This document shows, in pieces, positions 13,345 through 63,698 of a stretch of DNA of 64,000 nucleotides. The stretch lies in contig CAPXSA010000028.1 of the NCBI GenBank assembly GCA_948735595.1, positions 14,397 through 78,396 on the forward strand, in the 5' to 3' direction. The position numbers and the translations under genes were made by a program. The notes below the pieces were generated by a model. The model saw only the letters and a list, made by a program, of their open reading frames with translations, was not told where the DNA came from and made no database searches. Within the stretch, counting starts at the first letter, position 1; every line of letters starts with the position of its first letter. Source of the DNA: an uncultured Clostridia bacterium (GTDB lineage Bacteria; Bacillota; Clostridia; TANB77; CAG-508).

Positions 13345-13425
13345 TTTACTATCATCCTTTCTTCTCTAACGGGGACACATTTTTCCCCTTTGCATTTCTT
13401 TAGAGACAAACTATGTCCCCGCCAA

Positions 13426-22160: not shown

Positions 22161-22171
22161 AATTAGTATTC

Positions 22172-22210
22172 AAGCCCCTATTCCTATTTTTGGAAAAGGG
22201 CTTTTATTTA
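22172..22210 (+). terminator. Probable terminator after the 390-aa gene
   Basis: AAGCCC...GGGCTT stem followed by TTTTATTT. Confidence 0.5.
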
Positions 22211-22263
22211 TTCCCTTTATTGGCTCTAAAATGCCTCACATTCCCATTTTAGGAATAAGCCAA

Positions 22264-22458
22264 TTATAATATACCAAAATACTGTAAAACTTTTTCTTCT
22301 GTTTCTATAACTAAACCTGCACAATCAAGATATTGCCACATACCATCTATTTTATCTTCAATGGTATCTTCTAAACCATCTTCCCCAGTATCTGCTAATA
22401 TCTCTCCATAATAAACTTCATTTAATCTTTCAACTTGCTCACTTGTTAAATTTTTCAT
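22264..22458 (-). CDS. Hypothetical small acidic protein (64 aa)
   Basis: Start at ATG 22458. Its leader TTGAAAGGTGGTTTTAGTT is nearly identical to the leader of the 22925-23167 gene. Confidence 0.55.
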   Translation of the reverse strand: MKNLTSEQVERLNEVYYGEILADTGEDGLEDTIEDKIDGMWQYLDCAGLVIETEEKVLQYFGIL

Positions 22459-22570
22459 AACTAAAACCACCTTTCAAAATTTATTTTATACCTTTTCCCA
22501 TTTTAGGAAACAGTCAATAATTTATATGCCTATTTAAGCTATAAATGGCTCATATTGCATTTTTTATATT

Positions 22571-22912
22571 TTAGCAATAACAATACCTATTAAATCTGTT
22601 TTTGGTATTATTTCTCCAACTGCAATCATAATAATTAAATATTAAGACATTTCTATTTTCTAACAATTCGTGAATATCCTTAAAATCAAAACCATATTTT
22701 TTGTAAAATGCAATTATTAACTCAATTTTATGTTCAATCTCAAAGGCTTGCTCAAATAAATTATTTATTCTTTCTGGACTTTCTCCATTGATTGCAAAAT
22801 CTATGTATAAACTAGTATCAGTTGCAAGCAATAATTCTTTTCTTTTTTCAATTGTAAAAATACTATTGAATAACATATTTATTATTTTAATTTCATAATT
22901 AGTTAAATTCAT
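22571..22912 (-). CDS. Hypothetical protein (113 aa)
   Basis: AAGGGGG RBS. It starts 12 nt after the upstream stop, so it is probably co-transcribed. Confidence 0.55.
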   Translation of the reverse strand: MNLTNYEIKIINMLFNSIFTIEKRKELLLATDTSLYIDFAINGESPERINNLFEQAFEIEHKIELIIAFYKKYGFDFKDIHELLENRNVLIFNYYDCSWRNNTKNRFNRYCYC

Positions 22913-22924
22913 AAATACCCCCTT

Positions 22925-23167
22925 CTATATTCCATAAACTAAATCTCTCATATCAATATGGATACGTTTTATTATTTTTCCTGTTTCTAAATCCATAACA
23001 GTTCTATCTAATTGTATATTACAACTTGTATCTCCCATTATCAATTTTGAATAAGGTTTTACAATTCCATCTTTTTCCCAAAAGTTTAGAACATACTTTT
23101 TCCCCATTGTTTCACTATTTAAAATTTTTCCTTTTAATTCTCTCCAACTTTTTACTATGTTTCCCAT
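22925..23167 (-). CDS. Hypothetical protein (80 aa)
   Basis: Start at ATG 23167, after TTGAAAGGTGGTTTTAATT. Confidence 0.55.
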   Translation of the reverse strand: MGNIVKSWRELKGKILNSETMGKKYVLNFWEKDGIVKPYSKLIMGDTSCNIQLDRTVMDLETGKIIKRIHIDMRDLVYGI

Positions 23168-23487
23168 AATTAAAACCACCTTTCAAATATTTATTTCTTA
23201 TCTCTTTGTTGTACTTATTATACCTTTTTTTATGCCTAAAATCAAATTAAGCAAAGCATATTTCCTTACTCTTGCAACAGTTTTAAGGCACATTTTAATT
23301 ATTGGTACAACTGAATTGCAAGGCACAAAAATTTCAAAAATAAGTTTCAAATCCCTTACTACAAGCAGATTGCAGAGCATAAAAAAGTTTTTTAAAAAAA
23401 TTTTAGCAAAAATTCTCTTACAGTATCAAGTCTTACAGAAGCGGATTATGTAAACAAGTTGTGCCTGCATAAAATACTGTAAAAGTA

Positions 23488-23516
23488 TTGACTTTTACTC
23501 TAAAAACAATTATAAT
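23488..23516 (+). promoter_or_regulatory. Promoter of the element-borne tRNA-Lys
   Basis: TTGACT (23488-23493), 17 nt spacer, TATAAT (23511-23516), about 40 nt upstream of the tRNA. Confidence 0.65.
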
Positions 23517-23556
23517 TATAAAGTAGTTTTTGAAAAACTGTAAATCATTGATATAA

Positions 23557-23632
23557 GCACCACTAGCTCAGTTGGTAGAGCAGGGCACTCTTAATGCCAA
23601 GGTCCACAGTTCGACCCTGTGGTGGTGCACCA
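23557..23632 (+). tRNA. tRNA-Lys (anticodon CTT), complete, CCA encoded, carried inside the integrative element
   Basis: By hand the sequence folds as follows. Acceptor gcaccac pairs with gtggtgc. The D arm is gctc-agttggta-gagc. The anticodon arm is gggca-ctCTTaa-tgcca. The variable loop is aggtc. The T arm is cacag-ttcgacc-ctgtg. The 3' end is A-CCA. Confidence 0.9.
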
Positions 23633-23675
23633 ATAGGCACTTTCAAGTATTTTGGAAGTGTTTATTTTTTTGCAC

Positions 23676-23704
23676 TTGACAAGTCCTTATGATTTCCCTA
23701 TAAT
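23676..23704 (+). promoter_or_regulatory. Perfect consensus promoter pointing out of the element's right end
   Basis: TTGACA (23676-23681), 17 nt spacer, TATAAT (23699-23704). No plausible ORF follows before attR. Confidence 0.6.
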
Positions 23705-23868
23705 ATGGTGTAACATTGAATTGAAAAATTGCAAAAAATGAAAAATAGAAAAAAGGCTAATCATACGTTGCCTTTGAAATGATTGAAAAACGAATATAAA
23801 AATAGGAATAGCAAACCGCTGAGAGAGTAAGCAAAAATAAAACAAAGCTTGATTTTACCACTCCGTAT

Positions 23869-23915
23869 GACTCTTAATCTGATGGTCGGAGGTTCGACTC
23901 CTCTATGGCGCACCA
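23869..23915 (+). pseudogene. 3' part of the disrupted tRNA-Lys(CUU): repeat copy, anticodon-stem 3' strand, T arm, acceptor 3' strand and CCA
   Basis: The fragment reads gactcttaatc, tga, tggtc, the T arm ggagg-ttcgact-cctct, acceptor atggcgc, then A-CCA. It complements the 5' fragment at 16434-16473. Confidence 0.85.
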
Positions 23916-23921
23916 AATTAT

Positions 23922-23960
23922 AACAACTTACGAACTATAAAGTTTGTAGGTTGTTTTTTA
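23922..23960 (+). terminator. Original terminator of the chromosomal tRNA-Lys gene
   Basis: Stem AACAACTTACGAAC/GTTTGTAGGTTGTT (12 of 14 pairs) followed by TTTTTTA. Confidence 0.65.
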
Positions 23961-24008
23961 TATATATAACTAAAAAATGTTCTCTTTCTGGAAAGGAGAA
24001 TATTTTTT

Positions 24009-24293
24009 ATGCTTGAATTTGAAATATTACAAGAATTAGAGCCAAATGCTGAAATATTAGAAATAATAAAAGACTATGAGTATATAGTTGAAAATGGTAA
24101 AATTAAGCATTTAAAGGCTACTAATTTGCAATTTATTGAACCAAATGAATATTTAATTACATATCCATCTACTCTTACTATCTTTGAATATAAAGTAAAT
24201 GAAATTGCAAATAAGAACTTTTATGTTAAAGAACATAACCAAAAGTATAACTTAAAAGAACTTAAACAAATTCTCATGAAATTAAAAACTTAG
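24009..24293 (+). CDS. Hypothetical protein (94 aa)
   Basis: AAAGGAG RBS. No family recognised. Confidence 0.55.
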   Translation: MLEFEILQELEPNAEILEIIKDYEYIVENGKIKHLKATNLQFIEPNEYLITYPSTLTIFEYKVNEIANKNFYVKEHNQKYNLKELKQILMKLKT

Positions 24294-24485
24294 CTTGCAA
24301 AAGTGCGTTTTAATTAGGAAACATATGAAAGAATTAAATTTTTTTAAAAAAATTTCAAAAATAGGGGGGCGAAAACGCACTTTTCTGAGCAAACATATGA
24401 GAGGGTAAAAATTTTTAAAAGTTTTTTACAAATTTACCATACAAAACCCTAAAAAATTCACGGATATAGTAGGAGGTAATATTTT

Positions 24486-28419: not shown

Positions 28420-30501
28420 TTATTGAACTACTTTCGTTCCCTTTCTCACAATTCTCTCTTGCGGACTATATGTATCTTTTGATAATAATGTTTGAGAAAT
28501 AATTTTTCCATTATGTTTTACAATTTTATATCCTTCACTTCTACATCCATTAAACCCTATTTGCTCTACAACTTCTTTTCCTACTTCTAAAGTAGGGTCT
28601 TCTTTATAAGTTGTGGTCTTATTAATATAAGAAGTTATTTTAGACTGTAAAATAATTTCATATTCTACTTTTTCTTTAATTCCATACATGCTGATTTTAC
28701 AAACTCCATTTTGGGCAGTAGCTACAATTTTAATTGGATAAGTCCTTGTATTTTTAAAACAAAAATCTAAACTGCCATAATATACGGTGGCATCTCTGCT
28801 TGCTGCTACATAATCAACTGTAAAAGTATGGTTAGTTCTTTCTGTAATATCTAAGTTGGCAAGTAATGCTGTATTATATAATGTGGAAGATACTTGGCAT
28901 ACTCCGCCTCCTATACTTGGCACTACTTTTCCTGAAATATAGGCAGTTCCCTCTTTCCACCCTGCTTCTATTGTTCTAGAACCTACTGTTTTGTTATATG
29001 AGAAGGTTTCCCCCGGCATAATTACTGTTCCATTGATTTTCTTAGTTGCTAGTTCTACATTGTATGCTCTGTTAATAGCGCTTGCATCATAAATCGTTGA
29101 AAAGGATGCAATTTGGTCTGGAAATGCCTCTTCTCCTAAATCTGATAATTTTTTCTTTGGAGCCGTTATCTTAAGTGGAATTTCATATTCTTCCTTCTCT
29201 TCTTGTATTAACTTTTTTGCTTCTTCCATTGAAATTCCAAAATCCACTCCATTTTCTTCAACATGTACTTTGGTTGGATTCTTCTCTACATAAGCATCTT
29301 TTGGCTCTTTGTAAATTTCATTTCTAATTTTCTCTAAATCAATTTTACTTGGAACCTTTTTATCTACTGGTATTTCAATTTCTTTGTAAGGATTATGGAT
29401 GTCCTCTAATTGTTCAATAATCTGATTTTGTAATTGCTCTTTTCTAATCACATATCCTTCTTTTCCATTTACAACTATTAGTTTCTTTCCTTCTATATAG
29501 TAACTGTATTCTACTACGGCATCTTTCATTTTTGAATTAATATCATTAAGCGTCGTTTTCATAAATTCTTCATCCCAATGAAGCTGTGCTTCTATTTCTC
29601 TTGGAAAAAGTTTAAGCCATAAAATTTCATAGTTATTTGCAATAATATTTCCGCCTCTGCCTACATTATATGCCTTTGCCACAGCACTGTCTACATCGAA
29701 TTTTGCATTAAACGTATTGGCATTTACACTTACTTCAGAATCTCCATGTTTTAGTACTAAACTTTCTTTGTCATTTGAAAATTTTTGATTAATAGCATCA
29801 TTTATTCTTTGTTTTGCTTCATCCGCAGTTAAATTGCTTACATCAATTCCTAAAATAGAAATCCCCTTTAAAATTTTATTATTAATATTAGTTAAAGCAA
29901 AAATAACAGAAAATATCCCTATAACTATTATTGCTGCAATAATACTAAGAGCAATAGCAATTCCTTTTTTACCACCTTTTGTTTTGTTTTCTACTTTTAC
30001 AAACTGTTGTGGATTTTCTTCTTCGCTTTCTGTCTTTTCTACCTCTTCTTTTTTGGTATCTATTTGTTCTTTAAAATTATTTTCAACTTTTACTTGATTT
30101 TCCATTTTTTCTTGCTTCTCTTCTTTTTCAGGTAAAAGTTCTTTTTTTTCTTCCATTAAATTTACAACTTCTTGTATTCTTTGTTTTGCATTATCAGTTT
30201 CTTTTTTGTTAGTTTCATTTTTTATATTTTCCTTTTTAGGCTTTTCATTCTCTCTTTTAGTAGACTTTTTATTTCCTTCTTTTTTGCTTTTTGTTGTTGT
30301 CTTTTTCTTCTCTTTTTCTTCTTCTCCATTTACTTCTTTTTTAGCAGCTTTTTTACTATTCTTTTTAGGCTTTTCCTCTTTTTGTACTTCTTTTTCTTTC
30401 ACTTTTTCTTGTGTTTTTTCTTCTTGGTTTTCTACCTTTTCCTCTGCTACTTCCTTTGAGACTGTAATCTCTTCAGTCTTTTTGTTTTCTTCGTCTTCCA
30501 T
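28420..30501 (-). CDS. VanW-family protein with a K/E-rich disordered N-terminus, one TM helix and a G5-like C-terminus
   Basis: TM segment is GIAIALSIIAAIIVIGIFSVIFAL. The VanW core is GGGVCQVSSTLYNTALLANL. The C-terminal YSPQERIVRKGTK is G5-like. Confidence 0.8.
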   Translation of the reverse strand: MEDEENKKTEEITVSKEVAEEKVENQEEKTQEKVKEKEVQKEEKPKKNSKKAAKKEVNGEEEKEKKKTTTKSKKEGNKKSTKRENEKPKKENIKNETNKKETDNAKQRIQEVVNLMEEKKELLPEKEEKQEKMENQVKVENNFKEQIDTKKEEVEKTESEEENPQQFVKVENKTKGGKKGIAIALSIIAAIIVIGIFSVIFALTNINNKILKGISILGIDVSNLTADEAKQRINDAINQKFSNDKESLVLKHGDSEVSVNANTFNAKFDVDSAVAKAYNVGRGGNIIANNYEILWLKLFPREIEAQLHWDEEFMKTTLNDINSKMKDAVVEYSYYIEGKKLIVVNGKEGYVIRKEQLQNQIIEQLEDIHNPYKEIEIPVDKKVPSKIDLEKIRNEIYKEPKDAYVEKNPTKVHVEENGVDFGISMEEAKKLIQEEKEEYEIPLKITAPKKKLSDLGEEAFPDQIASFSTIYDASAINRAYNVELATKKINGTVIMPGETFSYNKTVGSRTIEAGWKEGTAYISGKVVPSIGGGVCQVSSTLYNTALLANLDITERTNHTFTVDYVAASRDATVYYGSLDFCFKNTRTYPIKIVATAQNGVCKISMYGIKEKVEYEIILQSKITSYINKTTTYKEDPTLEVGKEVVEQIGFNGCRSEGYKIVKHNGKIISQTLLSKDTYSPQERIVRKGTKVVQ

Positions 30502-30601
30502 ATTTTTTCTCCCTTAAATAAGTATATACTCTCTTATAAAATAATATACCATAGTTATTTTATATTTACAATAAGAATTCTCGGATATTTTGTCAGATTT
30601 T

Positions 30602-30690
30602 AGAAAATTTTCTTGAATGGCACTAGACATTTTTTTTCTTTTTTAATATAATTATTTTAGCTCTAGGAAATTGCATTTGAAAATGCAATT
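30602..30690. promoter_or_regulatory. Candidate operators upstream of the S24-type repressor gene
   Basis: AGAAAATTTTCT is a 12 bp perfect palindrome (30602-30613). Partial copies TTAGAAAATTTT lie at 30739 and 30763. AATTGCATTT-GA-AAATGCAATT is a perfect 10 bp-arm inverted repeat (30669-30690). Confidence 0.5.
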
Positions 30691-30793
30691 GACGTAGAGA
30701 TAAATTATGCAAAACTTAGATTTTCTTGCAATTTATTGCTTAGAAAATTTTAGTTTTGTTAGTTTAGAAAATTTTGGAAAAGAGGGATATGTT

Positions 30794-33930: not shown

Positions 33931-35683
33931 ATACTGAAACGTATCCTTTTTACCTTTTTTGTCATTGTTTTCCTTTGTTTTATTGGCTATTCTACTTTTC
34001 TTCCTTTATACACTTCTTCACAGGTCATCATTGATTATGGAATACAACCACTTGACATTTGCCTAGAACAACCCATACTTTGGAAATACTGTAAATATTG
34101 GTTTGCTTTCACTTATGTTTTTACCTCTTTCTTTATAGCCAATTCTATTTTTCACTTACTTTGCAAAATTCCCTTTTACACTTCTAAAAAGCCTTCCAAA
34201 AGTAAATGTTCCATTATGCCAAAGAATAATTCTTCTTATTCATTTATCGAAAAAACTCTCCCTTCTCAAAAGTTGGAATTACTAATTCGGTGAAACCGAA
34301 AAAACAAAGGAGTTCATTTATTTACCAGAAAAAAGTTTATATCAAAACATTTTAATTACAGGAACCATAGGAACAGGCAAAACAAGTAGTGCCATGTATC
34401 CCTTTACTAAGCAACTTATTGGCTACTCTCATCAAAATTCAGAACACAAACTAGGTATGTTAGTATTAGATGTAAAAGGAAATTATTATCAAAAAGTGTT
34501 AGAATTTGCGAAAGAATATCATAGATTACAAGATATTATTGTTATCGAGCTTGGTGGAAGCTATCATTATAATCCTCTACATAAGCCAAACTTAAAACCA
34601 ACTATTTTAGCCAATCGTTTAAAAACTATTTTATTATTATTTTCCAAAAATAACTCCGAAACTTACTGGCTAGATGAAGCTGAAAAGGTTTTGGCAGAAG
34701 CTATTAAACTTTGTCGTCTGTATAACAATAACTATGTTACATTTGAGGAATTACATAAATTAGTTACTCAGCCCACTTATTATTTAGAAAAAATCACTTT
34801 ACTTCGTGAAAAATTTATTCAAAATACTTTTTCTCAAAACGAAGTATATGACTTACTTTCCAGTATTACCTTTTTCGAAAAAGAATTTTTAGGCTTAGAC
34901 AATAGAACTTTATCCATTCTAAAATCTGAAATTACTCGTATCACCAATTGCTTTATTTCTGATTACGAAGTCTTAAAGACCTTTAATCCTGCCCAGACAG
35001 AATTAAACTTCCTTGGTTTTGAAGAAGTATTGTCACAAGGCAAAATTGTAGTACTTAACATGAATATTAGTGAATATAGCAATTTGTCAAAAATCATTGC
35101 GGCTTATTTAAAACTAGATTTTCAAACAGAAGTAATGGCAAGACTTTCTAAATATCCTACTAATAAACTTCGTAGTGTTTGCTTTATCTCTGACGAATAT
35201 TCTGAATACTGTACTGAAACAGACGCCAACTTTTTCGCACAAAGTAGAGAGGCAAAGTGTATCAACATTGTAGCTACACAAAGTTATACTTCCCTGTTAA
35301 ATACTTTACATGAACAGTCTACTGTAAACGTAATTACTCAAAATTTGATTAATAAATTGTGGTTTCGTAGTGATGATTTATGGACAATTGAAAGTGCTCA
35401 AAAGCAAATAGGTAAAGAAGATAAAGAAAAGATTTCTAAAGGAATTACTGAAAATGCAAAAGAAACATTTTTCAATTACTTTACAGATTCTTTGAACTCT
35501 AAAAATTCTAGTATTTCAGAAACAATTAGCACTTATATGCATTCTGATTTCATTTATGACACTAACTTTTTTACGCAATCTCTAGAAAATTTTACTTGCC
35601 TATCGTTTTTATCTGATGGAACCAAAATTATACCACCTCAGAAATTGCATTTATTTCCCGACTTTATTCCTAGTTCTAAATAA
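33931..35683 (+). pseudogene. Type IV coupling protein (VirD4/TraG-like), apparently inactivated by a non-canonical ATA at the start position and one frameshift
   Basis: AGGAGG (33918-33923) is followed 7 nt later by ATA CTG AAA. There is no ATG/GTG/TTG at that position. The frame-1 ORF encodes two TM helices and ends at TGA 34291-34293. The Walker A ITGTIGTGKTSS continues in frame 2, which is open from 34286. Walker B is CFISDEY. Confidence 0.7.
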
Positions 35684-35731
35684 TTAGTATTGATTGTCCC
35701 CAAATTTTAATATATCTAAGGAGGTTTTTCT

Positions 35732-36094
35732 ATGTTTTCTAAAAAAACATTTCACTCTATTTCTTTTTTTAAATATTTCGTTATCATTTCATTTGTTTTA
35801 CTATTTATTCTTTCCCTACCTACTACTGTACAAGCTGGCCTATTTGATGGTACTCCTGCTTTAGTTGATAAACTAAATTCTGCATTTGAAAAAATTGAAG
35901 ACTGGCTGTTAAAATTAGCAACACCTGCTGCGGCTGTTGCAGTAGCAGTAGGAGTATTTATGAAAAAATTTAGTTTTGGAGATGAAGAAAGAATTAGAAC
36001 TGCAAAGAAAATTATTCGTGGAAGTTTATTTTCTTATGGCTTTATTCTCGTCCTCAATTTAATTCTATCTGCTATTAAAAGTTTATTAACTTAA
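35732..36094 (+). CDS. TrbC/VirB2-like T4SS pilin-type protein
   Basis: GGAGG RBS. It has a signal peptide, two hydrophobic segments separated by a basic loop, and is about 120 aa. Confidence 0.65.
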   Translation: MFSKKTFHSISFFKYFVIISFVLLFILSLPTTVQAGLFDGTPALVDKLNSAFEKIEDWLLKLATPAAAVAVAVGVFMKKFSFGDEERIRTAKKIIRGSLFSYGFILVLNLILSAIKSLLT

Positions 36095-36106
36095 GGAGGC
36101 TTATTT

Positions 36107-36991
36107 ATGGAAGAAACATCTTCTTTAACAAATTCTATTATTCAAACTATTAACTCTATCTTTCAAACCCTCTTTTCATCTATTGATAATAGCATTTATG
36201 AAGTATTAGACGAATTGGTTTTTATTGATAGTAATATTCTAAATCATTCTATTTTTGAGAAAATATTTGGAACTAGTACATCTAATGGACTATTAGTTAT
36301 CGCTAACTCTCTTTTAATTGGCTTTGCACTTTATTACGGTATTCGTTTACTATATTCTTATTATATGAATTTGCAAATTGAAAGGCCCTATCAGTTTATA
36401 TTTAAACTATTAATCTTTGGCATTGTCATGAATTGTTCTTTTTCCATCTGCCAACAATTTTTGGAGTTAAATAGCTTTATTTCTCAAGCGATTCAAAATT
36501 TAGGTGTAAATCTATTTGGTCACCATATCTCTTTTTCTGAATTAGTCCACCAACTAAATAATATTATTTCATTTGAAGGAACTGAATTTAATATTTTCTC
36601 TTTTGATGGACTCATGAAAAGCTTTATTTCATTTGGCCTATTCAATTTAATCTTTTCATATTCTTTAAGATTTGTACTTGCAAAATTGTTCGTTTTACTG
36701 ACGCCCTTTGCTATATTAAGTTTAATCAATCAATCTACTTCTTGGTTTTTTAAAACTTGGCTTCGAACTATTCTTTCTTTGTTATTACAGCAAAGTTTAG
36801 TGTCTATTATTTTATTATTAGTTTTCTCTGCTAATTTATCTGCTACTGACATTTTCTCTAAATTATTATGTGTTGGTGGAATGTATGCTTTAATTCGTGC
36901 TAACTCTTATATGAGAACTCTAATCGGAGGAATTTCAACTGATGTTTCCAATAACTTAAATATTGAAACTCATTTATTAAAAAATAAGTAA
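36107..36991 (+). CDS. VirB6/TrbL-like polytopic T4SS membrane protein
   Basis: GGAGG RBS. It has 5-6 TM segments and sits directly after the pilin-like gene. Confidence 0.6.
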   Translation: MEETSSLTNSIIQTINSIFQTLFSSIDNSIYEVLDELVFIDSNILNHSIFEKIFGTSTSNGLLVIANSLLIGFALYYGIRLLYSYYMNLQIERPYQFIFKLLIFGIVMNCSFSICQQFLELNSFISQAIQNLGVNLFGHHISFSELVHQLNNIISFEGTEFNIFSFDGLMKSFISFGLFNLIFSYSLRFVLAKLFVLLTPFAILSLINQSTSWFFKTWLRTILSLLLQQSLVSIILLLVFSANLSATDIFSKLLCVGGMYALIRANSYMRTLIGGISTDVSNNLNIETHLLKNK

Positions 36992-37059
36992 GATAAAAAC
37001 TACCTTTTAGAACGAACTAATTTTTAATTAAATACATTTACTTTTCGAAAGGAGAAAAA

Positions 37060-37356
37060 ATGAAATTTATTTTTCCACAAAATTATAACTTTAAAAATAA
37101 ATTTTTAGGTGTCGTAGAATATTCTACTTTATTATTTAATATTATTTGGGATTTATTTATCTTTTCATTTGTTAATTTGCTTTTTCAAAATGCAACCATT
37201 AAAATATTTATTTTTATTATTTTTTGCTTACCAATATTTTTATTTAGTATAGTTGGTTTTAATCATGAAAATATTATTTATATTTTTATTTATTTAATTA
37301 AATATTTAAAAAGTACGAAATTATATTTTTATCATAAAAATCCGCATCTCTTTTAG
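37060..37356 (+). CDS. Small two-TM T4SS protein (PrgI/TcpE/VirB3-like)
   Basis: AGGAGA RBS. It is 98 aa with two long hydrophobic helices. In Gram-positive T4SS loci such a gene normally sits just before the VirB4 ATPase gene. Confidence 0.55.
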   Translation: MKFIFPQNYNFKNKFLGVVEYSTLLFNIIWDLFIFSFVNLLFQNATIKIFIFIIFCLPIFLFSIVGFNHENIIYIFIYLIKYLKSTKLYFYHKNPHLF

Positions 37357-37539
37357 GAATATTTTTAATTACTTTTCCCTTGTTTTTTGTAGTAATTTTT
37401 CTACTCTTTTTATATAACAATTTGTCCAAAAGATAACAATAACCCATCTTTATTTTCTTACGAGTTGTTGTTGTCTTTTTGTTAAGCATACTCGTTTTTA
37501 CTTCTTCTTCATGTTCATGAACATCTAATTTGTGTTTTG

Positions 37540-39400
37540 TAAGTCTTTTTCACCTTCTCCTCTTTCTTGCTTTATGTATACTAAATCACATCTTTCTATT
37601 TTGATATTCTGTTGCTCTACTTCCCTTTATTCCGAAGTACTCTCTTCTATTCTCTCTACTCCTTTATTATAGGATTGGCTATCTATCTTCATCGTTTTGA
37701 AGTAGAATCATTCGTCTACTTCAAAGTAGCTTTCAAGTTATTCCTTGTTTTACTTTAATTTCCCCTATACTTTATGACAATTTTTATTTGAATTCTTGCC
37801 ATATAATTTTATCTCATTTCCTAATTCTTTTTTAGGCACTTCCCTCTCTTAATTTTCTCTTCTTTTCTCCTTTTATTTCTTCTCATTTTCCGGAGTTTTA
37901 TTATCTAGTAATTCGCAAAAAATTTTAATACTCTTTTTTTATTCTTTTTTTATTTCTTTTTCTACTTTACTAAAATTTATAATTAGATTTTATCTTTTTT
38001 ATTCTAATATTTAATTACTTTTTATTTCCCTTTTACTTCTTTTTTATTTTTATTTTCTCTCTCTCTTTTATAAAAAAATTTTAATGTCTTTTTTATTTCT
38101 TTTTTAAAATTTAATTTTTATTTTTCTCTTTTTCTATTTTTGATTTTCGAATTTCTATTTTCAAATTTTTGCTTTTTCACTTTTTTAGATTCTTTATTTT
38201 TGAATTTTACTTTTTTAATTTTTTATTTTTTCAAGTTTTTTATTTTATATTTTCTATTTGTTTTATTTTGTCAAAAAGACTACGATGTATTTTTACTTTT
38301 TATTCCTGTTTTTAATTTTATTATTATTTTTTTCTTCTTCTTCTTTCTTTTTATTTTAGTCTATTCCATTTTTCCTTTTTGCTCTTCTGTTTTTATCACT
38401 TTGTTTTTTCATTAAATTATTTTTTTCATTTCCACTTTATTTTTTTATTCTATTATTTTACTTCTATTAAACTCTTTTATTTTCTATTTGCATTTTATAT
38501 TATTACATTATGATACTTTCTTATATTATTCCTTTATCAAATTTTTCTCTATTCTATATCTGTCTTCTAAATTTATTTTGCAAAGTAACTTATTCAAATT
38601 TTTGTTTTATTACTTTCTCTTCCGTATGTTTGTCTTTTTGTAATCTTTATTCTATTTCTTACTTTTTCTTTGCCTTTCCCATCTTTTCTTGTTTTCAACT
38701 ACATTTTTCCTTTTTTGTTTCTTTTGGCTTTATGTTACCTTTTGTAATATCATTTTTCTTTTTTCAAAATTTCAACCTTTCCCTTTATTCCGAAGCATTT
38801 TTTCCTTTTGCTATTCTACTCTTTTGTCCTACTTTTTGTCTCATTCCTTCTGATCTTTCTTCTTTTCCTTATCAATTTTGTTACTCTTCCATGAGTTTCT
38901 TCACTTAACCACTCATACTTTTTGTCAATTTTATTTTTATCTTTTGACTCTTTCTTTTTCTCTATTCTTATTCACCTTTTCTCTTTATTTTCTTATGTAA
39001 ACATATCTTTTTTTTCACATTTTCTTTCTTTCCATCTGCTACTTTTTATCTTTATTTTAATTCCGAATTTATATTTTCATTATCTACCTTTACTATTTTC
39101 CTCTTTTATATTTTTCTATTACTTTTTTATCATTTTATTTTATAGCAATTATTCTTCCTATTTTTATTTTCTCTTTCTTTTTTCTCTATTTTATTTCTTT
39201 AGATTTCATTTTTAACTTTATTATTTTTTCTATTTTTTATTTTGATTTTTATACTATATTTTTTTCAACTCCAGAAATCTATTTTGAAGTTTTTTGCCTT
39301 TGTGTCAATTTCTGTTTCGCGATTATTTTTTATTTATTCTTATTATTTTTCTTTTATCATTTTATATTGTACTTTTTATATTTTCACTTTGTTATTTTAT
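37540..39400. other. Non-coding tract of about 1.9 kb with extreme strand asymmetry: + strand T/C-rich and almost G-free
   Basis: I count 2 G in 37921-38140 (220 nt) and 6 G in 38941-39240 (300 nt). The only long ORFs are F/L/S/I-rich + strand artefacts without an RBS. On the - strand there is no ORF of 60 aa or more. Confidence 0.8.
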
Positions 39401-39521
39401 TTTTTACTATAATTTATATTGATTTATAATTTATGACTTTTAATCATTCTATAATTTATAATATTAGATTACATGAGTCTTCAAATTATTCATTACATTT
39501 ATAGTTTTCTCCTCTAGTTTA

Positions 39522-39550
39522 TTGTAAAATCTTCAAGAAAATGATATAAT
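39522..39550 (+). promoter_or_regulatory. Promoter of the dnaD/dnaI-like pair
   Basis: TTGTAA (39522-39527), 17 nt spacer, TATAAT (39545-39550). Confidence 0.6.
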
Positions 39551-39581
39551 CTGACAAAACATACTAATTGGAGGAATACCT

Positions 39582-44504: not shown

Positions 44505-45248
44505 TTATTTCGTTAATATACCTGCCAGTTCCAATTGTTCTTGTGATAAATTAAAATCTTGTCCATTATTTTTTATGAGCAAGTGTAAATTTTCTATCTG
44601 TTTTGCCTGTTTTATGGTTTGTTCTATTGGTAGTACCTCTTTTAATCTATCTTTTATTTTCTGATACTCTCTTTCCATTCCTTCAAAGTTTTGGGCTTGA
44701 AAATAATTTCTCCAATTATTTTCATACTTTCCTAACTTCTCAATGCTGTTCAACTGGCTAACAAATTCAGTCTCTATATGATTACTTACATTGTCTAAAA
44801 TAACATTCTTTCCTTGTCTAATCATACTAGTAACTTCTCTTGGTATCCAACCTTGCTTACTGGTAAAAGAAAGCGCTGTGTCTAAAGCATCAGATATACC
44901 ATCAATAATTCCTCCATTTTTCACTGCATTTTGGGCTTGTGAAACATTTTCAAATTTTCCTGTAAAAATCCCAGTTACACTCTTACCAAGCTCTACTGCG
45001 CTGTCAATTGCTTTGTCAATGCCTTCTTTTAATCCACCTTTAATTAAGCTATTTTTTACATCAATTACTTGGTTTTCTACGAAATCTGGTAATACCCATC
45101 GAAGGCCTAAGTCGACTGCAGTATTAACTACCTTTCCTAATGTTGTATCTAAAAAGTTCTTTTGCTCATTGGCTGTTACCAGTTCCTGCCTATCTTCATT
45201 TCTACTTTGTTCTAACATATTATTTTTATCCGCTAAGATTTCTTCCAT
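44505..45248 (-). CDS. Hypothetical protein (247 aa), overlapping the upstream ATPase gene by 16 nt
   Basis: Helical, with repeated G-x-x-D-x-A-x-D motifs. No family recognised. Confidence 0.6.
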   Translation of the reverse strand: MEEILADKNNMLEQSRNEDRQELVTANEQKNFLDTTLGKVVNTAVDLGLRWVLPDFVENQVIDVKNSLIKGGLKEGIDKAIDSAVELGKSVTGIFTGKFENVSQAQNAVKNGGIIDGISDALDTALSFTSKQGWIPREVTSMIRQGKNVILDNVSNHIETEFVSQLNSIEKLGKYENNWRNYFQAQNFEGMEREYQKIKDRLKEVLPIEQTIKQAKQIENLHLLIKNNGQDFNLSQEQLELAGILTK

Positions 45249-46525
45249 AAACTTATTACCTTTCTTTCTATTACTTCATTTTTTAATAACCTTTGGAAAA
45301 CATTTAAATATTCTTTTTGCAGTTCTTTCTTCAAGTGCCTTGTATCATTTTTATTAATTAACAAATTATACTCGGAATTATTAGAGAGCTTCCCTAAAAT
45401 AGTAAACCCTGAAAAAACATTTTTTAGAATAGAACTATCTATTGAATTTTCGTTATATTTATTGAATAAAATATGAAACTCTTTTTGCGGAATTCCCCAT
45501 TGATTAATATAAATATTTAATAATTTTTTTGCTTTTTTAATTTCAAGCAAATTAGGTTCCACCATAAAAATATTGATGTTACTATTTTTCATAATTTCCT
45601 TAGTATAATCCAAAAAGCATTCTGAAGAAGTATCAATGATAATAACGGTATACTTTTCTTTTAGTTTTGATAAGATGTTCTTTATTTTCACTTTACTAAT
45701 TTGATATTGACCATCAAATAGCAAACTAATTCCTGCAATTAAATCTATTTGGTTATTGATTTTCATAATTAATTCTTCTATTTGTAATGGTTCTAACAAA
45801 TTATTAGATTTTATCTTATTTGCTACCTTTTCTGGATATTTTTTAATTCCTAAAATGGTATGCAAACTATTATTTAACACATCAAAGTCAATAATTAAAA
45901 TTTTGCTTTTGTTCTCCATAAAGGCTTTAGCCAAATTAACGCTAAAAATACTTTTACCTACTCCACTTGTCCCGCTTACACAAATTATTTTAGTCTGTTC
46001 TTGTTTACTCGATGTGTCTTCTTTTTTTACCTTCCCTATTGCTAATAATTTTTTATTCTTTATCTTTTCATTTTTTCTTTGCAAAAATTCTCTTATGCCT
46101 TTTTGATTACTTTCTTTTTCTATTACAAATTGCTTTAATTCTTCTAGTTCTCTTTTCAATTGCTTGTTTTCATTCTCTTCCTTTATTAATTCAATAACTT
46201 TAAAAATCTCGATTTGATTATCATAGAAAATGGAATAAATACCTTTGGCATATAAATAGTTTTCTAATTCTTGATTTTTCTTTTCTAAAAATAAAATAAT
46301 TTGTATATTAGGACTATTCTTTTTTATTTTCTCAATTAATTCTTTTAACTCTATTTCTCCTTGTAGTAATTCACTTAAAATCAAAACATCAACTTGTTTC
46401 TTTTCTAAAACTTCTATAATACCTTCTTTATATGGAATATCTTCTGAAACAACTTCCAAAGTATCTTCTTGCTTTAATTTCTGGTTTAAATTCTGATTAC
46501 CTATTGCCGTCATTACTTTTTTCAT
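45233..46525 (-). CDS. ParA/MinD-type ATPase with an N-terminal receiver-like domain (TadZ/CpaE-like architecture)
   Basis: Deviant Walker A is VSGTSGVGKS in the second half. The first 120 aa have an alternating beta/alpha receiver-like pattern (VDVLILSE...). A coiled-coil linker joins the two parts. Confidence 0.7.
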   Translation of the reverse strand: MKKVMTAIGNQNLNQKLKQEDTLEVVSEDIPYKEGIIEVLEKKQVDVLILSELLQGEIELKELIEKIKKNSPNIQIILFLEKKNQELENYLYAKGIYSIFYDNQIEIFKVIELIKEENENKQLKRELEELKQFVIEKESNQKGIREFLQRKNEKIKNKKLLAIGKVKKEDTSSKQEQTKIICVSGTSGVGKSIFSVNLAKAFMENKSKILIIDFDVLNNSLHTILGIKKYPEKVANKIKSNNLLEPLQIEELIMKINNQIDLIAGISLLFDGQYQISKVKIKNILSKLKEKYTVIIIDTSSECFLDYTKEIMKNSNINIFMVEPNLLEIKKAKKLLNIYINQWGIPQKEFHILFNKYNENSIDSSILKNVFSGFTILGKLSNNSEYNLLINKNDTRHLKKELQKEYLNVFQRLLKNEVIERKVISLWKKS

Positions 46526-46570
46526 TTCTTTCCCCTTCTTTTACTTCTTTTCTCCTTCCTTTGTTTCTTA

Positions 46571-48373
46571 TTATCTTTTTCCTTGAATAATTGCTTGTTC
46601 AAAATCTGCTGCTTCTATTTTTGTTAAAATATGCTCTCCACCTATGAACATCAAACATTCTCCTCTTTTTAGTGATTTTATTTCTACTTTCTCTTTCTCC
46701 GACAAATTTGTATATTGCTCTAATACTTTAATGTTTTCTTCCTCTAGTGAGAAGAAAGTTTTTATTTCTGAGTTATTTAAAATACTTTTTCCATAAGTTC
46801 CATTTTCTAAACTAAATAGGTCTGAAATATCTTGTGTAATTGCTACACTACTTCCACCATATTTTCGAATTGTTTTGAAGATTTTATATATAAAACTTGC
46901 TACTTCCTTATTAGAAGTTACACCAATGAGTCTCCATATTTCATCTAGATAAATTGCCTTTTTCTGAGTTCTGTCTTTTTTTATCTTATCCCAAAATAAA
47001 TCAATGAATAAATACATTCCATACTTTAAGTTTTCCTCTCCTAATTCATAAACATCTGCTATAATAAAAGAGTTATCAAGTTCTATATTCGTATAGTGAT
47101 TAAAAAATTTTAAGGAACCTTTTACAAAAGGAATTAATTTAATTTGAAATTTTTTGGTTCTTTCTTCCTTTCCTAACAATTCATAAAAATCTTGTAAAAT
47201 GGGCATATCATAGGTACTCTTGAAAATTGGTTTTAAAATCACTTTGTTTTCTTCCTTTTTATACAAAGTATTGTCATCAAAAGTAATTCCTTTTTCTTGA
47301 TATAACTCTATTAGTTTTTCTTCCAAAATTGCCTTTTCTTCTTCGTCCAAATTACCAAAAATCAAATTAAAAAAACCTATTAATTTGCTAATTTTATTGA
47401 CTAAATAACCACTTTCCTCTTCTATGCTTTCTTGTCTAATGTCAAACACATTAATGTAAGTATTAGAACTTGGTCCTAGCTTTAACAAAGTTCCATTAAC
47501 TGCATTACATAGAGCACCATATTCTCTATCAGGGTCAATGACATATTGTTCTATTCCAAGTAAACGATTTCTTAAAATTAATAATTTTGTGTAAAATGAC
47601 TTTCCTGCTCCACTTGTTCCAAAAATGCACATATTTGCATTTTTATATTTCTGCGAATTATATCTATCTAGAAATACTAAAGAATTATTATAAATATTAG
47701 TACCTATGAAAATTCCCTCTTCATCAAAAATAGCAGATGAAATAAATGGATAGGTTGCAACTAGCCCACTTGTTAGAATATTCCTCTTTGCTGCTGACTT
47801 TAGGTCTAATGAATTCTGCATAATAGGAAGAGAAGATAAAAAAGCTTGCTCTTGCCTAAAATAGGCCCTTCTCGTTTGCATTCCCTTGCTTTGTAAAATT
47901 CCTTCTAATTTATTTAACAAATATTCTAAATCTTTTATATTACTAGCAAATGTAGTTACATAGATATAAAGAAAATATAATTCTTCATTATTGACTTGCA
48001 TTTCTTTTCGAATATATTTTGCGTCATTATAAGTAAATGCTGCAATATCAATATCTTGCCTATTGGGGTTGTTTGTCTTTAAGTCTACACCCACATTTCC
48101 AATATGATATGTTAAATCGCGAATGGTTTTATAGGTATCTTGTTTTTCATAAAAAATAGAAATATTTAAATTGATGTTGGTGTCAATAATAGATTTTAAA
48201 ATTAATTCTGTTTGCTCTCGAAAATAATTGACAATAATTAAAGTAGAATAATAATTGTTATCGATTTCAATATATTTTGGATTCATTAAATTAATATAGG
48301 CGGGAGCAATTTCATCTTTTTGTGTTATCACTCCACTTAAGAAATCTGTTTTCTGTTTTCGTACTGGCTTCAT
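46571..48373 (-). CDS. VirB4/TraE-like T4SS ATPase, C-terminal about three quarters (split gene or pseudogene)
   Basis: Walker A FGTSGAGKSF. Walker B AIYLDEIW. ITQDISD. There is no SD before the ATG. Its frame is open 57 nt further upstream. Confidence 0.75.
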   Translation of the reverse strand: MKPVRKQKTDFLSGVITQKDEIAPAYINLMNPKYIEIDNNYYSTLIIVNYFREQTELILKSIIDTNINLNISIFYEKQDTYKTIRDLTYHIGNVGVDLKTNNPNRQDIDIAAFTYNDAKYIRKEMQVNNEELYFLYIYVTTFASNIKDLEYLLNKLEGILQSKGMQTRRAYFRQEQAFLSSLPIMQNSLDLKSAAKRNILTSGLVATYPFISSAIFDEEGIFIGTNIYNNSLVFLDRYNSQKYKNANMCIFGTSGAGKSFYTKLLILRNRLLGIEQYVIDPDREYGALCNAVNGTLLKLGPSSNTYINVFDIRQESIEEESGYLVNKISKLIGFFNLIFGNLDEEEKAILEEKLIELYQEKGITFDDNTLYKKEENKVILKPIFKSTYDMPILQDFYELLGKEERTKKFQIKLIPFVKGSLKFFNHYTNIELDNSFIIADVYELGEENLKYGMYLFIDLFWDKIKKDRTQKKAIYLDEIWRLIGVTSNKEVASFIYKIFKTIRKYGGSSVAITQDISDLFSLENGTYGKSILNNSEIKTFFSLEEENIKVLEQYTNLSEKEKVEIKSLKRGECLMFIGGEHILTKIEAADFEQAIIQGKR

Positions 48374-48450
48374 AAAAGCAATTTGTTTTTGCAGTTCTTC
48401 TAATATTTTTAAAATGTTCTCACCTTCTTTTTAGGGGCAATATAGCACTC

Positions 48451-49023
48451 TTAAATTTGACTAAAATAAATTCTTGTATTTAAAAAGGAAAATAAAATAA
48501 AAAGCATTTCTTTTTGCTGATTAAAATCAGTTACGATATTTCCACATCTTGATAGACAGTCTTTTATCTTAAAGTATTTATCATTTAAGTCCTCTATTGC
48601 ATATTCTTCAAATTCTGTTATTTCTCTATTTTCATTTCTGTATTTTAAAATAATATAAAAGTTTTTGGAAGATGACTTTTTGTCATGATTTAAATTTTGA
48701 ATGTACTCTATATATTGTTTAGAAATCTCTTGGATATTTTTATCTTCTTGAATGGAATTTTGATTGACTGCTTGAATGTGCTTACTTAAATCTTCTTTAT
48801 TACTTTGAATTAATATTTGAAAATTGAAATTACAAGTTTTTAGAAATAATTTATAGGAATTTAAAATTGCCTCTTTTTCTAATTCTGATTTTAAATTAAA
48901 GTTAATCGGTTTGATTTTGATAATTTTAATATAGGTGTTGTCTTTTAACTGAATGATTCCGTTTTCTAATATTCTTTGAATAGGAAGCCATTCTTGGACT
49001 GATTTACTTTTTTGATTTTCCAT
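48451..49023 (-). CDS. N-terminal domain of the VirB4/TraE-like T4SS ATPase, encoded as a separate 190-aa ORF
   Basis: AAAGGAGG RBS. VQEWLPIQRILENGIIQLKDNTYIKIIKIKPINFNLKS is the typical N-terminus of Gram-positive VirB4 homologues. It is in a different frame from 46571-48373. Confidence 0.7.
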   Translation of the reverse strand: MENQKSKSVQEWLPIQRILENGIIQLKDNTYIKIIKIKPINFNLKSELEKEAILNSYKLFLKTCNFNFQILIQSNKEDLSKHIQAVNQNSIQEDKNIQEISKQYIEYIQNLNHDKKSSSKNFYIILKYRNENREITEFEEYAIEDLNDKYFKIKDCLSRCGNIVTDFNQQKEMLFILFSFLNTRIYFSQI

Positions 49024-49187
49024 TTTCCTCCTTTACCACTTAAGTTTCTTATTGACTTAATCACTGTTCATGAACAAATTCTATTTTTATGTTACTCCCA
49101 TCGTCAAAAAATGTCAAGAAAAATCGCATGACAAAATTCGACACAAAAACTTACATTTATTGATATGTATACATTTTAGCCATAGAA

Positions 49188-49214
49188 AAAAGTCAAGATA
49201 TATTCTTGACTTTT
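49188..49214. terminator. Bidirectional terminator after the 49224-49631 gene
   Basis: 11 bp stem AAAAGTCAAGA/TCTTGACTTTT with a 5 nt loop and flanking A/T runs. Confidence 0.75.
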
Positions 49215-49223
49215 TATCATATT

Positions 49224-49631
49224 TTATATTAAGTCTAAATTTCCGTGAAGAACAACTGGAGAAAATCCTGAAATTTCATCATATAACATTCCTTCTGGAA
49301 TATCGTTATATAAATAAATTTTTTTATCTGCCATAAACGCTTCATATAATTCTATAAAAGTTGCTCCTCCAATATAATTTTTCTTTCCATTTTTGTCAAA
49401 ATTTAATGTTACAACTGCATCCATACTTTTTATTTTTTCAGCACTCATTTTAAACATTCTTGCCTTAAATTCAGCATGTTCTTTTTCTCCTAAATTCCAA
49501 GCTTCTTGTTCAGCTTCTTCATGTCCATAGCTATTTGGTAAAAATATTTCATGACCTTTTGCTTCTAATCTTTCTTTAATTGGTGGAATATCTTTATAAA
49601 AAGCTTTACTACAAATAATAAATATTTTCAT
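49224..49631 (-). CDS. Hypothetical protein (135 aa), possibly with a nucleoside 2-deoxyribosyltransferase-like fold
   Basis: Start set at ATG 49631 (MKIFIICSK...). The pattern looks like a flavodoxin-like alpha/beta fold. The family assignment is weak. Confidence 0.5.
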   Translation of the reverse strand: MKIFIICSKAFYKDIPPIKERLEAKGHEIFLPNSYGHEEAEQEAWNLGEKEHAEFKARMFKMSAEKIKSMDAVVTLNFDKNGKKNYIGGATFIELYEAFMADKKIYLYNDIPEGMLYDEISGFSPVVLHGNLDLI

Positions 49632-50160
49632 TTTTATTATTTCCTTTCTTACTCTTTTTATCATTAAATCACAATTTCCAAATTTTGTCCATATAAATAA
49701 AATTAAATTTTGAATAATAAAAAAGAATTATGACATAATAAGAATATAAGGTTAATATTAGTTGAAATAAGAGTTTTATGAGGTCCTTTTATGGGTTTTA
49801 TAAAGTTCGAGCAAAGATTTATGATTGCTTAAAAGAACTTTAGGTAATGATAGGTCGGCGATGAGAATATAAAATTTGTATTTAAGCTATATCGATTTTA
49901 TTTTCGTTATTTTAATAAAAATAGAATAATAATATATGGTTGAAAATAGAGGTTTTATATTCGAAGTTAAGATTATTCTTGCATTTTTTTAGTGATTGTT
50001 ATTAGTCCTTTTAGGATGAATATAGTTATTATGTGTGCATTTGTAGTCGAGCAACTGATCTGTTTATTTGGTGTATAGTTTATTTGTGCAGTAATGTACA
50101 TTAGATTAAAAATTCGGTAAATAGGTTTTAGCTGAAGATTAATATTAGCTTTATTCGATA

Positions 50161-54518: not shown

Positions 54519-54841
54519 ATTTGTTTCGTCTCCTTTTTTATATATTAAATAAATATATTTAGTAGTAGTAATAGTAGGTATTGTGGATTTTGTGGAAAAG
54601 TACTTCAAATCCTTTTATCCGTAGTAAAATTTTTGGTGATAAATTTGTGGACAAATTGAAAAGTTATTTACAGTTTCCATTTTCTTCTGTGGAAAAGAGT
54701 TTATTAACATGTTATCAACAAGAAATTCACAGGCAATTGTGGATATTCTATGTAAGGCTTCCGTAAGAAAAGATTGGATTTGCTTTTTCGAACAGTTTTT
54801 TTACAAAACACAAATTTTAAAAAATCTTTCTTTCCTTAGAT
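54519..54841. promoter_or_regulatory. oriC: oriC, dnaA-dnaN intergenic part: AT-rich unwinding region, DnaA-trio run and at least 7 DnaA-box-like 9-mers
   Basis: Boxes relative to TTATCCACA/TGTGGATAA: 54582-54590 (2 mismatches), 54591-54599 (1), 54615-54623 (2), 54646-54654 (1), 54688-54696 (1), 54712-54720 (1), 54738-54746 (1). The AT-rich block is 54519-54559. Confidence 0.85.
54560..54577 (+). repeat. DnaA-trio-like element TAG TAG TAG TAA TAG TAG
   Basis: Six consecutive TAG/TAA triplets end 4 nt before two tandem DnaA boxes. This matches the arrangement described for B. subtilis oriC. Confidence 0.7.
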
Positions 54842-56257: not shown

Positions 56258-56289
56258 TTATCCACAAAGTTATCCACAATTGTGCATAA
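56258..56289. promoter_or_regulatory. DnaA boxes upstream of dnaA
   Basis: Two perfect TTATCCACA boxes at 56258-56266 and 56270-56278, plus an inverted TGTGCATAA (1 mismatch) at 56281-56289. Confidence 0.85.
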
Positions 56290-63520: not shown

Positions 63521-63698
63521 AGTGTATTTTAAGAAAATTCATTGACATATTTGCAATATTTTTATATCATTATAGTGTTATATTTTTGAAGAAAGATTAT
63601 ATAAAAGGGAAAAAGAAAAATCAATGAAACACTAGAACCACATGGGATATATCAAAAATACAAACGGTTTACATAAAACAAGAAAGGAGAAAAGAAAA

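Follow-up and report, generated by a model that had tools for sequence, protein, structure and literature searches.

A G-poor non-coding tract beside the replication origin of an uncultured Clostridia bacterium and its conserved polar modules

Results

A non-coding tract of about 2.2 kb that is almost free of G on the plus strand lies near the replication origin of an uncultured Clostridia bacterium (contig CAPXSA010000028.1). In this study, we analyzed this tract within a 64-kb stretch of the contig, hereafter called the window, and compared it with loci from relatives. These comparison loci are designated by L-numbers (L003, L049 and so on), and L062 is from the same species as the window. 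The window spans the replication origin, and its minus strand carries gyrA, gyrB, recF, dnaN and dnaA between 41.6 and 56.2 kb. Canonical DnaA boxes of the TTATCCACA type were found in clusters at 54591-54746 and 56258-56289, and none was found within 37357-39581. To the left of the tract are type IV secretion system (T4SS)-like genes, namely VirD4-like, pilin, orf294 and orf98 (34394-37356). The last of these, orf98 (37060-37356, plus strand), encodes a small membrane protein with 43-82% amino acid identity across relatives and forms the left edge of the tract. On the right is a dnaD-type gene encoding two DnaB_2 domains, followed by a gene for a DnaC/DnaI-like ATPase.

The inserted non-coding tract extends from 37357 to 39511, and its purine-rich "sense" strand is the minus strand (A.59, G.17, T.19, C.05). 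A first-pass annotation had placed the tract between the end of orf98 and a dnaD-like promoter, and both edges held, at 37356 and at the promoter TTGTAA-17-TGaTATAAT (39522-39550). The plus strand of positions 37540-39400 contains 1101 T (59%), 358 A (19%), 308 C (16.6%) and 94 G (5.1%). The near-absence of G that had been reported was reproduced exactly, with 2 G in 37921-38140 and 6 G in 38941-39240. Sliding-window analysis also placed the tract beyond the rest of the window in both G and purine fraction, and it was the most strand-skewed segment of the 64 kb. The minimum G fraction of all 300-nt windows was inside the tract (0.02; mean 0.138, sd 0.041), as was the minimum purine fraction of all 1-kb windows (0.22; mean 0.48). 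The purine fraction of 37357-39581 was 0.27, versus 0.43-0.60 in all other intergenic regions longer than 150 nt.

We then examined whether the tract encodes a protein. All three minus-strand frames translate into K/E/R/N-rich strings. However, they are interrupted by 69-78 stops per frame in 37540-39400, confirming the frequent stops noted earlier. Since all three stop types are represented in every frame, stop-codon reassignment rescues no gene. The plus-strand open reading frames (ORFs) at 38140-38415, 38510-38908 and 38922-39215 were indeed F/L/S/I strings. Some contigs have a gene annotated on a minus-strand ORF of 63 amino acids (37298-37489). Neither L003 nor L049 conserves this ORF, which is therefore probably spurious; it begins on island I4 of module B, described below. 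This ORF and another minus-strand ORF of 34 amino acids are species-specific, and no conserved small ORF was found within the modules. The tract was present in ten independent metagenome contigs of the same species, which rules out an assembly artefact. These results demonstrate that the tract is genuine non-coding, G-poor DNA.

The length and composition of the spacer between orf98 and dnaD were compared across 40 relatives, using a DnaD tree as the phylogeny. About 25 related species have a spacer of 44-80 bp with ordinary composition, in which the dnaD promoter and ribosome-binding site are located. In the clade of the window it measures 2225 bp (window), 2245 bp (L003) and 2283 bp (L049), and in one further subclade 500-1100 bp. 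Inserted spacers were always T-rich and G-poor on the dnaD-sense strand. Short-spacer lineages fall between both expanded clades in the DnaD tree, so that the insert was either gained two or more times, or gained once and precisely lost twice. No related gene was found at this site in any relative examined; a 265-amino-acid gene in L050 and L043 was considered as a relative of the tract and rejected as unrelated. These comparisons indicate that the tract is a lineage-specific insertion into an ancestral spacer of 44-80 bp in front of the dnaB/dnaD-type helicase-loader operon.

The insertion history bears on the proposal that the tract is the remnant of an old K/E/N-rich gene on the minus strand, or of an inserted gene cassette. 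Its composition is close to that of real low-complexity coding sequence, such as the 5' part of a VanW-like gene (29882-30696) and the ParA-like gene, and the K/E/R/N-rich character of every minus frame fits this proposal. However, the ancestral spacer was short and relatives have no homologous gene there, each minus frame holds about 70 stops, there is no period-3 signal, and tblastn with neighbouring proteins gave chance matches only. Moreover, the invariant islands described below are invariant at third positions as well, and the two copies of island I4 lie in different local ORF frames. Gene decay was not borne out and is very improbable.

Alignment of the tract from three species (window, L003 and L049) exposed short islands of conservation, which were then aligned in 14 copies from nine species. 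On this basis, the tract carries two copies of a conserved polar module of about 310 nt on the minus strand. Module A (38630-38938) is nearer to dnaD and gave a full-length nhmmer match with E 1.9e-18, and module B (37471-37789) is nearer to orf98 and gave E 7.7e-31. A hidden Markov model (HMM) built solely from copies of other species, belonging to the other clade, recovered module B of the window with E 4e-6. It also matched L003 and L013 and revealed new sites: in L021 and L022 these lie between orf247 and the ParA-like gene, and in L015 upstream of the VirB4-like gene. The spacer between orf98 and dnaD is the most frequently occupied site. Occupied spacers of 500-730 bp hold one module, and those of the window, L003, L049 and L007 hold two modules separated by a linker of 700-950 nt, a layout thus shared with the sister species.

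Each module contains four invariant islands, which are arranged on the minus strand in the order I1 (AAAATTGTCAAAAAG), I2 (CTTCGGAATAAAGGGAA), I3 (GT(A/T)(T/A)ACATAA) and I4 (ACAAAAAGACAA). Patterns invariant in the 14 copies are CGGAAT.AA in I2, ACATAA in I3 and AC.AA.AGACAA in I4. In module A, I1 is located at 38918-38932 (AAAATTGACAAAAAG), I2 at 38779-38796 (GCTTCGGAATAAAGGGAA), I3 at 38730-38739 (GGTAACATAA, with the invariant core ACATAA) and I4 at 38630-38641, all on the minus strand. The corresponding minus-strand positions in module B are 37770-37786 for I1 (AAAAATTGTCATAAAG), 37621-37638 for I2 (ACTTCGGAATAAAGGGAA), 37571-37581 for I3 (GTATACATAAA) and 37471-37482 for I4, whose sequence is the same in both modules.

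The first-pass annotation had argued from several internal repeats that the tract is not simple homopolymer drift, and this argument held. Its identical 17-mer at 37621-37637 and 38779-38795 is island I2, one of the four invariant islands, and none of 100 shuffled sequences gave two matches. The repeat AAAAATTTTAAT was found with starts at 37918 and 38074, the two TxCGAATTT...TTTTCA words were present, and the perfect 10-bp hairpin at 37697-37724 was confirmed. This hairpin, to which no strand was assigned, lies in module B and is species-specific, since L003 and L049 have a gap there.

The spacings between the islands were bimodal: 134-137 or 145-148 nt for I1-I2, 46 or 55-57 nt for I2-I3, and 89 or 100-101 nt for I3-I4. 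The two classes thus differ by 10-11 nt for all three spacers. The islands are kept at orthologous positions in the window, L003 and L049, and the remaining tract is near the shuffled null. Because the islands and their spacing stay in place across species near synonymous saturation, they are probably under purifying selection. The roughly 87 kb of sequence from this species contain four module matches, divided equally between the window and L062. These paralogous copies share little outside the islands, which suggests that they are ancient and have not spread recently.

Two sequences outside the modules resemble islands. In the middle of the linker, TTGTCAAAAAGAC at 38268-38280 on the plus strand resembles I1 fused to the start of I4, in the orientation opposite to the modules. 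In the 5' leader of parA (63667-63700), GGTTTACATAAAACAAGAAAGGAGAAAAG...GTG resembles I3 and the downstream flank of module B; its spacing to the other islands does not fit, and the likeness may be coincidence in purine-rich sequence. We also considered I2 and I3 as a Xer/dif site. I3 is the reverse complement of the XerD arm of Bacillus subtilis dif (sequence from PMC3025954) at 10 of 11 positions. This candidate was rejected, as the likeness concerns a half-site only and no arm-spacer-arm site was found in any tract.

We next investigated how the sequence outside the modules evolves. The A-rich linker between the modules (37790-38629, minus strand) is of low complexity, prone to slippage and unconserved in sequence between species. 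In the A-rich filler between the dnaD promoter and module A (38939-39511, minus strand), the sole conserved block is A(C/A)AATATAAAAT at 39358-39370. Identity of the tract to L003 and L049 was 0.57-0.60, versus 0.53 for shuffled sequence and 0.65-0.67 for dnaD third codon positions. Compared with L001, the last 284 nt of the tract were 0.72 identical and dnaD third positions 0.74. Given this closeness to dnaD third positions, most of the tract drifts at a roughly neutral rate. Contigs of the same species differ at 16 single-nucleotide polymorphism columns in the tract (7.2 per kb), compared with about 0.8 per kb for the flanking genes. The six indels seen within the species were all of the slippage type, comprising five one-base changes in T runs and an 11-nt tandem duplication (37932-37942) that is polymorphic within the species. 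Filler length therefore changes by replication slippage and tandem duplication. Tandem Repeats Finder detected weak short-period arrays only. Periodicity analysis of A-tracts and dinucleotides gave peaks at about 11-11.75 nt in three of four tracts, all under the 95% shuffle threshold. No match of the tract to plasmids was found by blastn, and blastn against the loci of relatives gave mostly low-complexity alignments of 65-70% identity, near the expectation from composition. Tract length and composition are nevertheless held across species whose silent sites are near saturation.

These properties led us to consider a selfish or functionless repeat, that is, a non-autonomous mobile element (a miniature inverted-repeat transposable element (MITE)-like element or a derivative of a single-stranded DNA (ssDNA) transposon) with polarity set by replication and with filler that is slippage junk. 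Presence is patchy, as close lineages have gained or lost the element, several insertion sites are used, and the filler looks neutral and accumulates slippage indels. The modules end in short inverted termini (TTGTC...GACAA, 5-6 nt) with a direct AAAAAG adjoining both ends, all of which lie within the islands themselves. Elements of the IS200/IS605 type show an orientation bias relative to replication, which also counts for such a repeat. On the other hand, paralogues in the same genome are alike only in the islands and hence ancient, islands and spacing are held at orthologous loci, indicating purifying selection, and neither conserved terminal hairpins nor a nearby transposase was found. In addition, tract length was kept at 2225, 2245 and 2283 bp over the same divergence, and bacterial genomes are usually biased towards deletion. 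We therefore consider a selfish repeat unlikely.

A second tract was found on the other side of the origin. The contig L062, which extends the right end of the window, contains a gene-free tract of 1.9 kb (13050-14950) after parB and two tRNA genes. The composition of its plus strand (A.58, C.05, G.14-.16, T.22) is the mirror of the window tract. Two module matches lie on its plus strand about 840 nt apart, and the second abuts a convergent gene. An orthologous right-side tract was found in L192, a relative with 91% ParB identity, and CAG:508-like relatives have just a 368-bp gap at the site after parB. In an information-weighted dot plot of the window against L062, the best diagonal was not clearly above locally shuffled controls; the homology of the two tracts rests on the recurrent islands and the HMMs. 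The first-pass annotation had named as a possible refutation of its reading that comparable G-free tracts are common intergenic filler throughout this genome. Such tracts do recur: this species has a second, and relatives have many. Because conserved modules are present in them, however, they are not plain filler.

The distribution of the tracts was also informative about structural DNA, for which two forms had been proposed: a former of triplex or H-DNA, and the transfer or replication origin of a conjugative element in decay. The strong purine/pyrimidine strand bias and the adjoining T4SS-like and replication genes are in line with these proposals. However, the longest pure pyrimidine run in the tract is 26 nt, within what composition predicts (shuffle mean 21.8, maximum 42), and there is no mirror repeat with arms of at least 10 nt. 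H-DNA was thus not borne out. The T4SS-like genes continue past gyrA with orf247, a ParA/CpaE-like ATPase, VirB4-like and TraC-like genes (44505-49664). Their order is kept in relatives down to 47-55% DnaD identity, and it is the same from L003 to L049. This conserved synteny argues for a stable chromosomal block and against a decaying conjugative element. Many relatives keep these genes without the tract, the paralogous tract lies by parB and tRNA genes away from any T4SS gene, and DnaA boxes are absent from the tract. A conjugative-element origin also found no support, and structural DNA of either form is highly unlikely. As a separate observation, the T4SS-like genes are interleaved with dnaD/dnaI, gyrA and gyrB beside the origin and resemble a core chromosomal system. 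A Pfam scan of ten neighbouring proteins, a subset of the window ORFs, contained no relaxase, and the single hairpin seen in the tract is the species-specific one in module B. When the window was extended by 3.4 kb leftwards, no additional tract was found.

Among all loci, the left replichore contained 58 strongly skewed 400-nt windows, and 56 of them were pyrimidine-rich on the plus strand. With the mirror tract included, the purine-rich strand of the tracts is always the leading strand of replication. Fourfold-degenerate sites on the leading strand have A.49-.55, T.28-.38, G.07-.10 and C.04-.07. The skew of the tract has the same direction but is 2-4 times stronger, and the tract is richer in G, so mutation bias alone is insufficient. 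Pure mutational bias was rejected as an explanation on this ground: the A>T excess of fourfold sites on the leading strand has the right sign, but its skew is much weaker and it brings less G. Charneski et al. 2011 (PMC3174206) ascribe the A>T skew of Firmicutes to selection, not mutation. Two processes would give the observed composition. Slippage amplification of a polar purine-rich seed would retain polarity without selection, and selection for a purine-rich, C-poor transcript would yield the same composition; sequence data cannot separate the two.

Real K/E-rich coding segments of these genomes are nearly tract-like in composition. The ParA/CpaE-like gene (45233-46525, minus strand) and its orthologues are real genes with an extremely C-poor coding strand, and in relatives the plus strand of this gene has T.53, A.31, C.11 and G.05. 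It is also fast-evolving, with 56-66% identity where DnaD has 73-91%. Its C-poor coding strand indicates that G-poor stretches in this clade are not always non-coding.

We then compared the islands with the dnaD promoter. The dnaD-type promoter TTGTAA-17-TGaTATAAT is followed by an I1-like box, (C/T)TGACAAAAC, and together they occupy 39522-39560 on the plus strand. Many species have the dnaD promoter TGATATAAT followed by TTG(T/A)CAAAA(G). Island I1 consists of a -10-like hexamer nAAAAT followed by TGTCAAAAAG, and A2 and T6 of the hexamer are invariant in 14 of 14 copies. Position 39551, directly after the dnaD -10 element, carries a C/T polymorphism within the species; with the T allele, the site regains the TTGACAAAA box of relatives. 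I1 is thus either a promoter core of the dnaD type that lacks a -35 element or an operator copy, the original of which would overlap the start of dnaD transcription.

If the latter holds, the islands would be binding sites for one or more DNA-binding proteins and the tract an operator or titration array. A factor recognising the TTGWCAAAA box at the dnaD start would have further targets in I1 and in I4, which carries the inverted half-site GACAA. Under this view, the modules would serve either as looping auxiliary operators or as a sink for that factor, by a logic like that of datA for DnaA, with the filler as a bendable A-tract spacer. The I1-like box stands directly after the dnaD -10 element in species with and without the tract, the spacer in front of dnaD is the commonest occupied site, and no RNA structure was found. 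I1 has a palindromic TTGWCAA core whose centre flips between copies (TTGTCA versus TTGACA), and all inter-island spacers step by 10-11 bp, which is one helical turn. These last two features support an operator array better than an RNA locus. However, such an array leaves the extreme purine skew and the replication-linked polarity unexplained, and the genes next to the copies are unrelated: some copies follow parB and tRNA genes, and others lie upstream of orf247 or the VirB4-like gene. The 10-11 nt classes follow phylogeny and so reflect few events, which 11-nt slippage polymorphism could produce. The A-tract periodicity of about 11 nt is not significant, and no candidate binding protein was identified. 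We regard an operator or titration array as possible but rather doubtful.

We tentatively favour, with less than even confidence, a reading in which the tracts are polar non-coding loci of one family, with transcription in the purine-rich direction. The first-pass annotation had likewise proposed a purine-rich RNA made from the minus strand, the leading strand on this side of the origin. Transcription alone accounts naturally for both the strand composition and the co-orientation with replication. The islands would be recognition sites for sequence-specific factors. As the -10-like arrangement of I1 is shared with the dnaD promoter, transcription is proposed to begin at I1 and would run in the purine-rich direction, co-directionally with replication. 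The resulting RNA would be C-poor and unstructured, with I2-I4 as linear motifs, and the filler would be slippage-amplified sequence that inherited the polarity of the module.

Several results weigh against transcription from the modules. At I1, a -35 element matched at no more than 3 of 6 positions (16-18 bp spacing), there was no TG at -15/-14, and no terminator was found. RNAalifold predicted 0 pairs on the 14 copies, and module A folded no better than shuffled sequence (z = -0.10); module B gave z = -1.89, owing only to its species-specific hairpin. Rfam gave no matches at gathering thresholds and two spurious sub-threshold matches at E <= 1. These folding and Rfam results exclude an RNA with a conserved fold. 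A DNA-level protein complex would account at least equally well for the 10-11 nt spacer steps and for the TTGWCAA palindrome at the core of I1. Furthermore, the polarity rule comes from four or five independent sites, with one locus on the right replichore. Copies are known from origin-proximal loci, and pattern scans of metagenome and viral collections did not recover the module: the metagenome pattern, which was overly permissive, gave 120 matches, none of which passed the module HMM, and the viral scan gave three chance matches inside an unrelated coding region.

Other long tracts and neighbouring features were observed in the course of this analysis. Distant relatives have non-coding G-poor tracts of 3-4 kb after orf247, in place of the ParA-like and VirB4-like genes of closer relatives (L037 10739-14213, L044 11612-14765, L045 11730-14657, L047 16682-20969), and contigs end inside them. 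They hold repeated motifs of their own, including four copies of CTATATGTAAAC in L047, and L037 has a 637-nt tandem duplication. Remnants of ParA-like or VirB4-like genes were looked for, and none was found in the window tract or in these long tracts. The assemblies L001, L002, L005 and L063-L065, as well as many ParB contigs of 1-2 kb, break at or just before tracts. Because metagenome-assembled genomes (MAGs) and short-read assemblies break there, tracts are probably under-represented in databases.

One subclade consistently has the DnaC/DnaI-like gene divided into two ORFs that overlap, with lengths of about 200 and 155 amino acids (L037 5317-6325, L039 10982-11984, L044 4942-5947, L047 10980-11994, L050 11022-11996). 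This could be a programmed frameshift, a true two-gene arrangement or a common sequencing problem. Elsewhere in the window, an RT-14 Rfam RNA match of 75 bits, above the gathering score, lies at 12623-12764 on the minus strand; it is upstream of a Tex-like gene (10294-12492), and no reverse transcriptase is adjacent. The region 22161-24485 (2.3 kb) has no ORF of at least 120 amino acids, is of ordinary composition and contains a tRNA-Lys gene (23557-23632). A large nonribosomal peptide synthetase gene at 28-6615 (L186 3107-9988) encodes condensation, AMP-binding and PP-binding domains, and the complete protein has 2293 amino acids. This gene lies about 50 kb left of the origin in a small AT-rich genome.

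Discussion

In this study, we found that a non-coding insertion in front of the helicase-loader operon holds its length, composition and four islands while the remaining sequence is randomised, and that it has a mirror paralogue across the origin. Non-coding DNA of 2 kb is rarely kept in bacterial genomes. Taken together, these features point to an unrecognised functional non-coding element. More speculatively, the tracts might form a new class of polar loci that flank the origin in mirror placement and act through kilobase-scale unstructured purine-rich RNAs, or through an ssDNA lagging template, bearing the four motifs. The dnaD box would tie such loci to the helicase-loader operon or to origin organisation. 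We consider this extended proposal doubtful.

The element occurs in abundant but uncultured gut Clostridia (CAG-508-like MAGs). The tract is also a clean case of composition and spacing conserved without sequence, and it can be used to separate slippage from selection at the RNA or DNA level. The first-pass annotation knew of no described element of this composition and size. In agreement, the literature that we searched held no description of such an element, only general work on strand skew, and no known family fits.

Several known systems share part of these features. REP/BIME, BOX, RUP and Correia elements and MITEs are likewise multi-copy and intergenic, about 100-300 nt long, solo or in tandem, and patchy in close lineages. 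In those families, however, conservation within a genome extends over the whole element, and hairpins are usual. The present modules share four islands only, have no conserved hairpin and are accompanied by kilobase-scale skewed filler.

Among RNAs, the sponge RNAs CsrB/RsmZ and CrcZ, the latter with A-rich Hfq motifs, are non-coding, carry short repeated motifs and have no conserved global fold, as would apply here. Their length is 100-450 nt and their promoters and terminators are defined, whereas the tract is about 2 kb long and no canonical promoter or terminator was found in it. OLE, GOLLD, ROOL and HEARO are long, non-coding, found in Clostridia-type genomes and conserved across species, but they are highly structured with covariation, unlike the modules. 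A transcript of the plus strand is predicted to resemble rut regions (the "C>G bubble"), since it would be C-rich over G (C/G = 3.3), unstructured and untranslated. However, rut regions span about 80-100 nt, not 2 kb, a rut function would leave the islands and the mirror copy unexplained, and at the mirror copy an intrinsic terminator already serves the convergent gene. The window contains no rho gene.

The likeness to attP, plasmid centromeres, iteron origins and datA/DARS lies in a unit of about 250-300 bp with short invariant islands, constrained spacing and free intervening sequence. One island also resembles a box at the promoter of a replication gene. Nevertheless, the tract has no DnaA boxes or iterons, no recombinase or partition gene is tied to the copies, and those systems have neither strand skew nor replication-linked polarity. 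The element thus lacks the defining feature of each system with which it was compared, whether full-length identity, hairpins, structure, DnaA boxes or inverted arms, although it resembles interspersed repeats in the pattern of its copies, motif-array sponge RNAs or multi-site DNA architectures in its islands and spacers, and rut regions in the C>G bias of the plus strand.

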